Source of the DNA: Eledone cirrhosa | Lineage: Eukaryota | NCBI GenBank assembly: GCA_964016885.1 | Contig: OZ024741.1 | Coordinates: forward strand, 384,648,001 to 384,712,000 | DNA: 64,000 nucleotides | Reading direction: 5' to 3' | Shown: positions 27,895 to 30,957 of the stretch, piece after piece | How positions within the stretch are numbered: the stretch's first letter is position 1 | Layout: the number at the start of each line of letters is the position of its first letter | Position numbers and translations under genes: made by a program | Notes under the pieces: model-generated | Seen by the model: only the letters and a program-made list of their open reading frames with translations | Databases searched by the model: none | Told to the model about the DNA's origin: nothing

Positions 27895-29012
27895 AACATG
27901 TCTAAAATCAACCATACGACCGAAAAATAGCGATCTGGAAGATTCGGGACACTCAGATAAAATATCAATAAATCAATAAATCAAATGAATGTAAAAAACA
28001 TACCCGGACCCGCTAGAAAGATGGTAAATCTAGCTTCTTGGGTTTCTGTAAATCCTTAAACTGCCTTCTATCAGCTCACATAAAAATATATAAGACTTCT
28101 AGAAGCCAGCGGACCGGAATTTAATCCTCAACGAGCTTTTGTCCGAACGAATGAAAAGGCATAACCCAGGTTGAAAAAACGCACATGGAATTCAGCAAGG
28201 GAGATAACCTCTATATCCGCAAAAAATATTCGGGAAAATGTGGAAATACACATATCGAATAATAGTGCTCAAAAGACATGTTAAAATAAACAGGAGCTAT
28301 TCATCATTTAATAGAATCGACAAAAAATGAACAATAAAATTAACTGGTCAATAGCAAGGTCTAGAGCTAAATATAGTAGAATAATCGAGTATCGAAAAAT
28401 CGGCGCACGAGTTCACGATAAACAACATTCGAAATGAGCGGCAGAGGGCTCAATAATTCAGATAAATCAGAGCTATAACTATCGTTAAAATACCGTCACA
28501 CATAGAACATGTCAAAAATCAACCATACGACCGAAAAATTGCGATCTGGAAGATTCGGGACACTCAGATAAAATATCAATAAATCAATAAATCAAATGAA
28601 TGTAAAAAGCATACCCGGACCCGCTAGAAAGATGGTAAATCTAGCTTCTTGGGTTTCTGTAAGTCCTTAAACTGCCCTCTATCAGCTCACATAAAAATAT
28701 ATAAGACTTCTAGAAGCCAGCGGACCGGAATTTACTTCCTCAACGAGCTTTTGTCCGAACGAATGAAAAGGCATAACCCAGGTTGAAAAAACGCACATGG
28801 AATTCAGCAAGGGAGATAACCTCTATATCCGCAAAAAATATTCGGGAAAATGTGGAAATACACATATCGAATAAGAGTGCTCAAAAGACATGTTAAAATA
28901 AACAGGAGCTATTCATCATTTAATAGAATCGACAAAAAATGAACAATAAAATTAACTGGTCAAAGCTAGGTCTAGAGCTAAATATAGTAGAATAATCGAG
29001 TATCGAAAAATC
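27895..29012 (-). repeat. Tandem array of ~1.8 copies of a 611-bp non-coding unit
   Basis: 'gtc(t/a)aaaatcaaccatacgaccg' at 27900 and 28511. The copies are nearly identical and flanked by (TA)n. Strand is assigned from the HHR-like motif. Confidence 0.9.
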
Positions 29013-29032
29013 ATATATATATATATATATAC

Positions 29033-30035
29033 ATATATTTAATACAATAACAGAGATAGCTTCAAGCTAAACTCCGACTGGTAACCATCTCACTCAACAA
29101 ACATTAGGTTATATGTTAGTATAAACCCAATTTAAGTGTTTGGGGTGCTAACTATATGTATTTTGTGGAAAGCCAGTTGTATTATTTTATGAGATGTAAT
29201 TAAAGTTAAAATATATCTCTCTTTCCAAACAATTGTTTCATTATAAGTTTTCTACAAATTGGGAGAATGTTTCCAGTTTATGTAGAAGCCTAAACATATA
29301 TTCATGTAAGAATACATTTAGGTGGGCACTTATAAATCTTCAGTGGAAGCCCATTAAACTTTGATATGAGAAAAAATTCTTAACGTAGTTAAAAATCGTG
29401 TCTGCTAAGCTGCTCCTTCACGCATCGAATGACCGCCAAATTTGAAATTCCAGCAGTCTTTTGACTGAGGAAGTTTCATAGCGTCATGAAGCGGGAAAGG
29501 GAGACAACCACGATTCACGAGAAAAGAAAATAATAAACACGTGGGTTAATTAGTTTTTTCAAAAACATTATCAATCCAACTCAATTGAATTTAAAAAAAT
29601 AAATGTATGCGTGTATTAATTACACACGCATATAGATATTTTCTTAGGCTAAAAACAGAAGTGATACCAAAATAACAAACCGCATCCCATAACCGCAGTA
29701 AATATGGAAAGTTACGCTTTAAAAGGCGATTGGGAATGTAAATCTCTGGCCAAATTAAGAGTAAAATATTTAATACACGCGGGTTAATTAGTTATTTCAA
29801 AACTACTATCAATTCCACGTGTTAAGAACTCAATTAATTGAAAAAAATTAATTTATGCATGTAATTATTTACACACGCATATATATATTTTCTTAGGCTA
29901 AAAACAGAGAAGTGACAACCAAAAAACATCCACATCTCACAAGAGTAACAAATACGGAAAGTCATGTTTATAAGGTATCTGGAAATAAATACCTCTGGCC
30001 AAATCAAGAGTAAAATATATAATACAATAACAGAG

Positions 30036-30040
<5 letters not shown>
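29033..30040. repeat. ~1-kb ORF-less block with a short terminal direct repeat and an internal ~240-bp diverged duplication
   Basis: 'taatacaataacagagata' at 29040 and 30020; 29536-29775 resembles 29774-30025. Confidence 0.7.
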
Positions 30041-30100
<60 letters not shown>

Positions 30101-30108
<8 letters not shown>

Positions 30109-30956
30109 TGATCGAGTATCGAAAAATCGGCGCACGAGTTCACGATAAACAAAATTCGAAATGAGCGGCAGAGGGCTCAATAATTCAGATGAATCAGAGC
30201 TATAACTATCGTTAAAATACCGTCACACATAGAACAAGTCTAAAATCAACCGTACGATAAAAAAATCGATAATAGAAGATTCGGGACAATCAGATAAAAA
30301 ATATCAATAAATCAATAAATCAATAATTTAAATGAATGTAAAATCATACCCGGACCCATTAGAAAGGTGTTAAATCTAGCTTCTTGGGTTTCTGTAAATC
30401 CTTAGACTGTACTCTATCAGCTCACATATAAATATATAAGACTTCTAGAATAAGCGGACTGGATATTTACTTCTTCAACGAGCTTCGTCCTAACGGATAA
30501 GAGGCTAACTACAAGCAAAATACGCACATGGAATCCGGCAAGGGAGATAACCTCTACATCCGCGAAAACTATTCGAGGAAATGTGGAAATACACATATCG
30601 AATAAAAGTGCTCAATAGACATGTTAAAATAAAACAGGAGCTATTCATCACTCAATAGAATCGACAAAAAATGAGCAATAAAATTAACTGGTGGATAGCT
30701 ATGTCCAGAGCTAAAAATATTAGAATGATCGAGTATCGAAAAATCGGCGCACGAGTTCACGATAAACAAAATTCGAAATGAGCGGCAGAGGGCTCAATAA
30801 TTCAGATGAATCAGAGCTATAACTATCGTTAAAATACCGTCACACATAGAACAAGTCTAAAATCAACCGTACGATAAAAAAAATCGATAATAGAAGATTC
30901 GGGACAATCAGATAAAAAATATCAATAAATCAATAAATCAATAATTTAAATGAATG

Positions 30957-30957
<1 letters not shown>
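30101..30957 (-). repeat. Tandem array of ~1.4 copies of a 617-bp unit, same family as 27895-29012 in a different permutation
   Basis: 'tattagaatgatcgagtatcg' at 30101 and 30718. It is a diverged paralog of the 611-bp unit and is flanked by (TA)n. Confidence 0.9.

Follow-up and report, generated by a model that had tools for sequence, protein, structure and literature searches.

A 64,000-nt stretch of the Eledone cirrhosa genome (assembly GCA_964016885.1, contig OZ024741.1, positions 384,648,001 to 384,712,000, forward strand; hereafter the window) contains two tandem arrays of one non-coding family inserted in (TA)n. The account that best explains the whole, and that we hold to be fairly probable, is a (TA)n retrozyme, in which a hammerhead with a U3 core and a long stem II would cut the RNA, part of the RNA would become circular, and the reverse transcriptase would be borrowed. 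The unit is likely a non-autonomous passenger of a Penelope-like retrotransposon (Penelope-like element, PLE). An earlier sequence-only reading of the window had proposed a retrozyme, and this classification is supported: the unit is non-coding, hammerhead-bearing, mobile and tandem, and is read on the minus strand.

The arrays, the family terminus and the target tracts have the following positions in the window.

27895-29012, minus strand: array 1, period 611/612 nt, 1.83 units, atypical, 5'-truncated at 29012.
30103-30957, minus strand: array 2, period 617/618 nt, 1.39 units, the canonical copy.
30103-30116, minus strand: the family's fixed 3' terminus, ~245 nt downstream of the predicted cut site, with internal copies near 28375, 28986 and 30719.
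27464-27895, strand not applicable: (TA)n target left of array 1, with further TA runs at 29013-29037, 30036-30103 and 30957-30991.

The description of two arrays of one family, of about 1.8 and 1.4 units with (TA)n on both sides, was accurate, as was the lack of an open reading frame (ORF): the coding search found no non-repeat reading frame above 79 aa inside the units of either array. Identity is 98% within array 1 and 86-88% between the arrays. In array 2, the fixed 3' terminus at 30103 abuts (TA)n, and the 5' end lies ~13 nt past the missing second cut site, at a hot spot. Array 1 lacks the standard 3' terminus of the family, as the terminal ~135 nt are gone at its left end, and this loss gave the impression that the two arrays are in different permutations.

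A genome-wide search with the unit, which the earlier reading had proposed, revealed a dispersed family rather than a unique locus, with more than 2,000 exact insertion junctions. It gave 2,432 first-look candidates in the 3.0-Gb assembly, the best 40 of which were scored. A 35-nt version of the motif has 1,419 exact genome matches (reversed control, 0), and a sister-subfamily 12-mer has 2,557 (181 for its control). Exact junctions of (TA)4 plus the terminus number 1,338 and 742 for two subfamily patterns, and 0 for the controls. The window region itself has a near-identical inverted duplicate ~260 kb away (G000:C2:384.92-384.94 Mb; L002, L250 and L281), which is either a recent segmental duplication or an uncollapsed haplotype. 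Separately, a satellite-like block at C1:81.71-81.75 Mb (L315-L317) holds ~60 family units that are mixed (5-20 differences) and irregular in their higher-order patterns, and so differs from the star-like dispersed arrays.

One end of the insertions is fixed. When the window locus and its near-identical duplicate are left out, one unit position is the start in 27/28 scored loci. Among the loci picked by the motif, the terminus is joined to (TA)n in 12/12 dispersed arrays, the remaining 11 loci all falling within the one satellite-like block. A homologous terminus at TA was seen by eye in most of 70 loci around sister-subfamily motif matches. Different permutations are therefore not a property of the family, array 1 being the exception. 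We infer that the terminus at 30103-30116 is where reverse transcription starts.

The other end is variable. In a sample of 112 termini (the first listed on contig 1 plus 20 more; 9 duplicate loci dropped and 1 censored), the median copy length is 419 nt, 39/111 copies reach a full unit, and TA follows the 5' junction in 89/111 cases. No long terminal repeat (LTR), primer-binding site or polypurine tract was found; copies end by the fixed terminus at (TA)n and by truncation, and target-site duplications are not discernible within (TA)n. The TA junction at 28371 recurs in contigs of sequencing runs X1 and X4, which have no bearing on expression. Outward-facing pairs of copies, 200-1,000 nt apart, leave one TA tract at 3/180 loci (L126, L148 and L386).

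The family is thus dispersed by fixed-end insertion into (TA)n, with 5' truncation and partial tandems. A fixed 3' end, 5' truncation, partial tandems and a microsatellite target are features of PLE insertions (PMC8557442), and mobilisation in the PLE manner is very probable. That permuted ends are the signature of a circle finds no support here, as copies vary at the 5' end only, by truncation, and keep the 3' end fixed. Fixed ends had in turn been named as a mark of ordinary tandem duplication; they do occur, but they indicate target-primed reverse transcription of the PLE type from a fixed start.

Each unit carries one type I hammerhead, a three-way junction with stem I open. The copies and associated elements in the window are listed here.

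28613-28748, minus strand: intact type I hammerhead motif, core UUGAGGA at 28743-28737 (U3.G8), GAAA at 28657-28654, predicted cut between 28618 and 28617.
30348-30483, minus strand: intact type I hammerhead motif, core UUGAAGA at 30478-30472, GAAA at 30392-30389, predicted cut 30353/30352.
28002-28136, minus strand: type I hammerhead motif, core UUGAGGA at 28131-28125, predicted cut 28007/28006, a single U replacing the A after the core and G10.1.
28067-28074, 28678-28685 and 30413-30420, minus strand: CUGAUAGA decoy, part of a covarying hairpin within stem II.
28556-28559, 27945-27948, 30282-30285 and 30900-30903, minus strand: conserved CCCG anti-stem, predicted to pair with the CGGG after the cut.

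This fold differs from the one proposed earlier. Given 36 diverse copies, RNAalifold returned stems I, II and III unprompted, GCUCG pairing with the CGGGU that follows GUC. The motif at 28613-28748 has this stem I (GCUCG/CGGGU), an A.A mismatch, a stem II of ~85 nt and a long stem III. The motif at 30348-30483, when isolated, is predicted to fold into the full three-way junction, and stems I and III are predicted to form in 109/158 isolated segments and, in a separate folding, in 3/3 window copies. The hammerhead at 28002-28136 is probably weakened, judging by its bases. The minus strand folds better than shuffles (z -3.3) and the plus strand does not (z -0.7).

Stem III, GAAA and the GUC site are retained from the earlier fold at the same positions, and the core is indeed non-canonical, with U3 replacing C3. 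The minus-strand motif is also where it had been placed, CTGATAGA starting at 28074, 28685 and 30420. What changes is the half-core. The true one, UUGANRA, lies ~57 nt further upstream, and stem I, which had been called weak, is 5 bp long. CUGAUAGA, which had been taken for a core with one extra base, varies across subfamilies and lies within the long hairpin; by comparison of copies, it is a decoy inside the ~85-nt stem II and not a catalytic half-core. In Rfam, 26000-33000 and 27960-28800 matched no ribozyme family even with E allowed to reach 10, and on 9 sister loci none reached gathering score; with its UUGANRA core (U3-A8 or U3.G8), ~85-nt stem II and long stem III, the motif goes unrecognised.

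Other folds were considered for the AGAAG / CNGAY loop. Its AGAAG and C-N-GAY strands resemble loop A of the hairpin ribozyme, but that reading was dropped, as neither helix 3 nor the 3' strand of loop B could be placed and Rfam gave no match. The hairpin-ribozyme, kink-turn (K-turn) and selenocysteine insertion sequence (SECIS) readings of this loop were all given up once RNAalifold gave the full hammerhead. In the old subfamily, L336, L338 and L348 have another repeat inserted at one place in stem II, just before GAAA.

The corrected fold is conserved. Over 51 distinct copies, 93.3% of cells are paired, compared with 28-42% in slid controls. Two-sided changes occupy 108 cells, compared with 29.9 in shuffles, and the covariation score is 0.335, compared with 0.213 in shuffles (0/500). 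The base of stem II has two-sided changes in 4/5 pairs, and stems I and III are 97.6% and 98.5% paired.

To counter selection bias, the catalytic positions were examined in a set of 142 copies chosen by the terminus and not by the motif; 72-89 of them reach the motif. Polymorphic positions are 0/14 in the core and 303/558 elsewhere (P 2e-5). U3 is invariant (72/72), and U4, G5, A6 and A9 are kept, as are G12-A15.1 (84-85/85), U16.1 (86/89) and C17 (85/89). N7 is free (G27/U17/A29), and position 8, facing U3, is G43/A30; both vary as hammerhead chemistry allows. The canonical core, C3 U4 G5 A6 N7 G8 A9, is not present, as C3 is absent. U3-A8 cores are described as natural and reported active in vitro (PMC3088659; PMC4209133 for PLEs), so that the claim is of a variant hammerhead. 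There is little doubt in our minds that the hammerhead fold is under selection.

The insertion ends record where reverse transcription stopped. In the window's subfamilies, 30/116 passes stop just past the predicted cut, within a span of 26 nt, which is a 7.2-fold excess over other positions, in a zone that was anchored on the cut site and whose width was chosen after data inspection. The youngest subfamily repeats the pile-up, with 12/226 passes and a 5.0-fold excess (70 of 742 termini). Array 2 ends within the part of this zone, 8-19 nt after the cut, that most ends occupy. The end of L372 falls on the cut base itself and its flank is not TA, and L331, of an old subfamily, starts there as judged by eye. 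TA microhomology as the sole cause of the pile-up was rejected, as 0/74 passes end at the best (7-nt) TA microhomology. From these ends and the conserved core, the hammerhead likely cuts RNA after GUC, and we think cleavage in vivo probable.

Whether the template was circular was examined through the tandem units. In 55 arrays, units within one insertion differ by a median of 1.1%, and units of different insertions by 5.1%; the nearest other locus is also 1.1% away. The youngest subfamily has a 615-nt unit with the core UUGACAA. Its long arrays include two with 15 and 18 units, all identical, which span 10-11.5 kb, and a third whose 13 units are nearly identical; they share the fixed end and have differing 5' ends.

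Stops at the site are concentrated in the first pass in this subfamily (10/64, vs 2/162 in later passes; P 8e-5), and also within its UUGAGAA type (7/25 vs 0/21), core types of short copies having been assigned by nearest neighbour. Such first-pass-heavy stopping is predicted by a mixture of cut monomers and circles, and not by a roadblock. An array at L010 is arranged X-Y-X-Y, X being intact and Y lacking the cut site, and this variant is found only at L010, twice. This suggests the product expected of a dimer circle, although it is a single case that DNA duplication could mimic. Taken together, the stops and arrays tilt us towards a circle as the template of reverse transcription, and a circular template for the family, as the sequence-only reading had it, is rated plausible.

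Several observations tell against the retrozyme account. First, the active fold seems seldom occupied. With 60 nt of upstream context and the downstream part absent, stem I has a predicted probability of no more than 0.06 in 8/8 young or window copies, and in 4/4 circles folded this probability does not exceed 0.005; in context it is higher in some older copies. The four pairs of the anti-stem hold in 143/144 cells, the anti-stem is predicted to compete with stem I, and the active fold is predicted to be a minor conformer. The window copies carry the U3.G8 wobble core, for whose activity no literature source was found. Two of the five covariation measures fell short of significance (49 and 92 of 500). 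Two-sided changes are absent from stems I and III, whose 3' strand the search pattern had fixed.

Second come the insertion ends and the link to PLEs. Most ends lie 8-19 nt past the cut and not at it; we read these ends, at a TA-like 5-mer, as joining by microhomology. Inverted 5' arms, typical of PLE insertions, occur at 0/180 loci. Among the loci read, no PLE 3' end resembles the unit beyond a weak AT-rich terminal likeness. Third come the observations on the circle. Cleavage, ligation and circle are all read from DNA. In the window's subfamilies the stop rate is flat per pass (22/91, 5/21 and 3/4). The UUGACAA type, which has the longest arrays, stops only 2/148 times, as fits either circles or an idle ribozyme. 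One identical unit is common to five long loci, and a pair of long arrays, each next to an assembly gap, may be master arrays. The Y unit of L028 (X-Y-X), whose core is dead, occurs once and may be a mutation that arose at that locus.

The strongest rival keeps the element and its ribozyme but has no circle. Transcripts of master arrays, partly cut, would be copied as linear multimers, and arrays would grow by DNA duplication. The flat stop rate in the window's subfamilies fits such partly cut linear multimers and not circles. The five long loci with one identical unit, two of which run into gaps, the satellite-like block of ~60 mixed units and the finding that uncut RNA is the main in vitro substrate of an anole PLE (PMC11167929) also favour it. 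Against it are the stops confined to the first pass in the youngest subfamily and the star-like near-identity of 11-18 units across several independent insertions. The X-Y-X-Y array has no source copy in the assembly, and only 22/200 differences between neighbouring units recur in another locus. We regard linear multimers as unlikely, though as the rival to be taken most seriously.

In a second rival, the hammerhead is a structural relic or a protein-binding fold, and the pile-up marks a transcription start or a roadblock for reverse transcriptase at stem III and the anti-stem. The low predicted occupancy of the active fold, the ends mainly 8-19 nt past the site at a TA-like 5-mer, and the insertion of the anole PLE in vitro, unimpaired by ribozyme mutants (PMC11167929), are compatible with this. 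However, invariance is confined to catalytic positions, with N7 and position 8 varying as the chemistry allows. Stems II and III upstream of the cut, which are equally strong, show no excess of ends, and the UUGACAA subtype passes the same stems 146/148 times. This rival is improbable.

The earlier form of the hammerhead, with CUGAUAGA as half-core of a small ribozyme, a weak stem I and random circle permutations, is hardly credible. Its motif is in all three window units, where the small stem pairs, so that the statement that differences in stem II keep pairing holds for these three copies; over 51 diverse copies it fails, with 62.7% of cells paired. The covariation analysis proposed for this motif gave no excess of two-sided changes in the small stem II (the same 51 copies). 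The octamer reads CGGACGG, CAGGCAG or CAGAGGG in sister subfamilies, with U to A in 12/78, and one end of the insertions is fixed. An ordinary satellite or DNA-level tandem duplication, to which the one satellite-like block and the duplicate 260 kb away would lend themselves, is refuted for the family as a whole by its dispersed insertions, which number in the thousands, are truncated on one side only and share a terminus exact to the base, and a piece of the pseudo-LTR (pLTR) of a coding PLE finds no coding PLE joined to the unit in the loci read, a search that was not exhaustive; we give these two origins next to no weight.

For the retrozyme account, we propose the following course. Tandem transcripts would self-cleave only in part, as inferred from the minor active fold and from the competition of the anti-stem with stem I. 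By analogy with PMC7229834, a host ligase would close some of the cut monomers into circles. The (TA)n target would be nicked by a PLE protein, and cDNA would start at the internal site ~245 nt after the cut; for another PLE, reverse transcription was shown to start internally, at AT-rich targets (PMC11167929). On cut linear RNA, the cDNA would run off at the cut and join the nearest TA-like bases, which would account for the copies of ~230 nt. Where the template is an uncut multimer or a ligated circle, the cDNA would extend further, to 1-19 units. A more specific version, which we put forward only tentatively, is that of a still-active retrozyme whose whole cycle is recorded in its genome copies: a switchable hammerhead with a U3 core and an 85-nt arm would cut co-transcriptionally, the anti-stem would shut it off and so keep the 615-nt circle intact once ligated, and the reverse transcriptase of a Hydra-type PLE would enter this circle at one fixed site and roll around it up to 19 times (>11 kb) into TA microsatellites.

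A candidate for the helper lies 2 kb from the arrays.

33151-35904, plus strand: PLE of Hydra type; inverted 5' arm present, reading frame broken near 34050.

Its protein has the motifs RWR, DKT, CxCX5C, CxxC and CxH. Pfam and PDB sequence searches gave no name for this protein, so that its clade rests on motifs from PMC8557442, according to which the Hydra clade inserts in (TA)n. The family is young, with 150 scored matches at 96-100% identity (the best of 72,981 candidates), and has open frames of 702-713 aa elsewhere (L300 and L308). Its terminal hammerhead-like motif has CAGAAGA (A for U4) and a U.U mismatch, folds poorly alone and places the cut site ~25 nt from the end. Its terminus and the unit show a weak AT-rich likeness. 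That this PLE is the helper is possible, though we would not presume it from the sequences compared.

Among known systems, the family has the features of animal non-LTR retrozymes (PMC7229834; 10.64898/2026.07.22.740005) that DNA allows one to check. It is like them in that its tandem units are non-coding and low in GC, that each unit has a single type I hammerhead, that dispersed copies range from monomers to multimers, and that it coexists with PLEs. Its length is no novelty: the unit had been thought longer than known metazoan retrozymes, but ~610 nt falls within the 51-972 bp spanned by retrozyme families in the 2026 preprint (10.64898/2026.07.22.740005). It differs in the UUGANRA core, the ~85-nt stem II and the long stem III. 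The fixed 3' end, TA targeting and 5' pile-up at the cut, shown here, were not seen reported for animal retrozymes in the accessible parts of these sources; expression and circles are shown there, whereas the present family is known from DNA alone.

It also resembles the pLTR hammerheads of PLEs (Schistosoma Cercyon with U3-A8, PMC4209133; anole Poseidon PAc, PMC11167929), as these are type I with an extra base after A9, include the U3-A8 variant and have low predicted stand-alone activity, and their elements have an internal start downstream of the ribozyme, AT-rich targets and 5'-truncated partial tandems. As described there, however, the pLTR motifs are minimal and dimer-dependent, with a helix II of 7-8 bp and little helix III, whereas the present motif is ~135 nt with a full stem III, and the unit has no ORF, a start ~245 nt after the cut and, at 180 loci, no inverted 5' arms. 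Such an arm is frequent in PLEs and not obligatory. Hydra-clade PLEs share the (TA)n insertion (Craig et al. 2021, PMC8557442), and non-autonomous elements of Chlamys such as MRC1 share head-to-tail non-autonomous copies. As far as these sources go, the likeness of MRC1-type elements to their helper lies at the 3' end; in the present family that end showed just the weak AT-rich likeness, and the helper is thus a candidate only.

The family is unlike plant LTR retrozymes in organisation. Those have a type III hammerhead, LTRs, a primer-binding site and polypurine tract, 4-bp target duplications and a Gypsy helper, none of which was seen here. Their circular RNAs of 600-800 nt, as cited in PMC7229834, are in the same size range as the unit. 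Searches of papers found neither this family nor any cephalopod retrozyme described, subscription papers, Repbase, Dfam and supplements being outside their scope; the consensus may sit under another label, for example in the hammerhead ribozyme (HHR) files of PMC8557442 or the repeat library of PMC13282606.

The window holds further elements.

24966-25555 (approximate): element of a second hammerhead family, with canonical CUGAUGA motifs at 25140-25221 (minus) and 25392-25473 (plus).
29031-30040, minus strand: non-coding element between the arrays, with a 249-bp internal tandem and one terminal 20-mer at both ends.
26285 (plus), 31262 (minus), 53410 (minus), 55146 (minus), 57903 (minus) and 58293 (plus): minimal CUGANGA...GAAA hammerhead-like motifs, typical of PLE ends.
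45197-45976, plus strand: FRG1-like gene or retrocopy, single-frame, 260 aa (PF06229, E 2e-72).
3989-6657, minus strand: remnant of an endonuclease-reverse transcriptase long interspersed element (LINE), RVT_1.
53962-54630, minus strand: PLE-like fragment.
37935-39896: TA-rich minisatellite, 26-bp unit, ~77 copies.

The second hammerhead family has the layout of the main one, with CAGAAAC and a stem II of ~55 nt that has a mismatch at its base. It lies in TA in an inverted PLE-type arrangement; 2,053 first-look candidates were obtained, and no ORF was seen in 30 loci. The terminal 20-mer of the element at 29031-30040 is close to the terminus of the Hydra-type PLE, and this element is probably another non-autonomous PLE passenger, by its termini. 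The TA tracts of the window are a nest of PLE-type insertions.

Two things are new here: a U3 hammerhead that has a long arm, a decoy core and an anti-stem, and a record of insertion ends. The movement of animal retrozymes as circular RNA with PLE machinery has been proposed (PMC4209133, PMC7229834 and the 2026 preprint), the insertion step not being shown in what these sources make accessible, and in the one PLE studied in vitro the ribozyme proved dispensable (PMC11167929). The family offers countable readouts, namely the fixed start, stops at the cut, first- versus later-pass stops, arrays of identical units and the dimer period with a deleted cut site. With these, with a subfamily that is very young and with a candidate helper whose frames are open, the circle question becomes testable in one system. 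The variant also shows that hammerheads in animal repeats are undercounted when one relies on descriptors and Rfam. If the rolling-circle reading is true, the arrays would attest directly, at the genome level, that PLE enzymes reverse-transcribe by rolling circle, and the family would imply that long-armed hammerheads form a class which escapes current descriptors.

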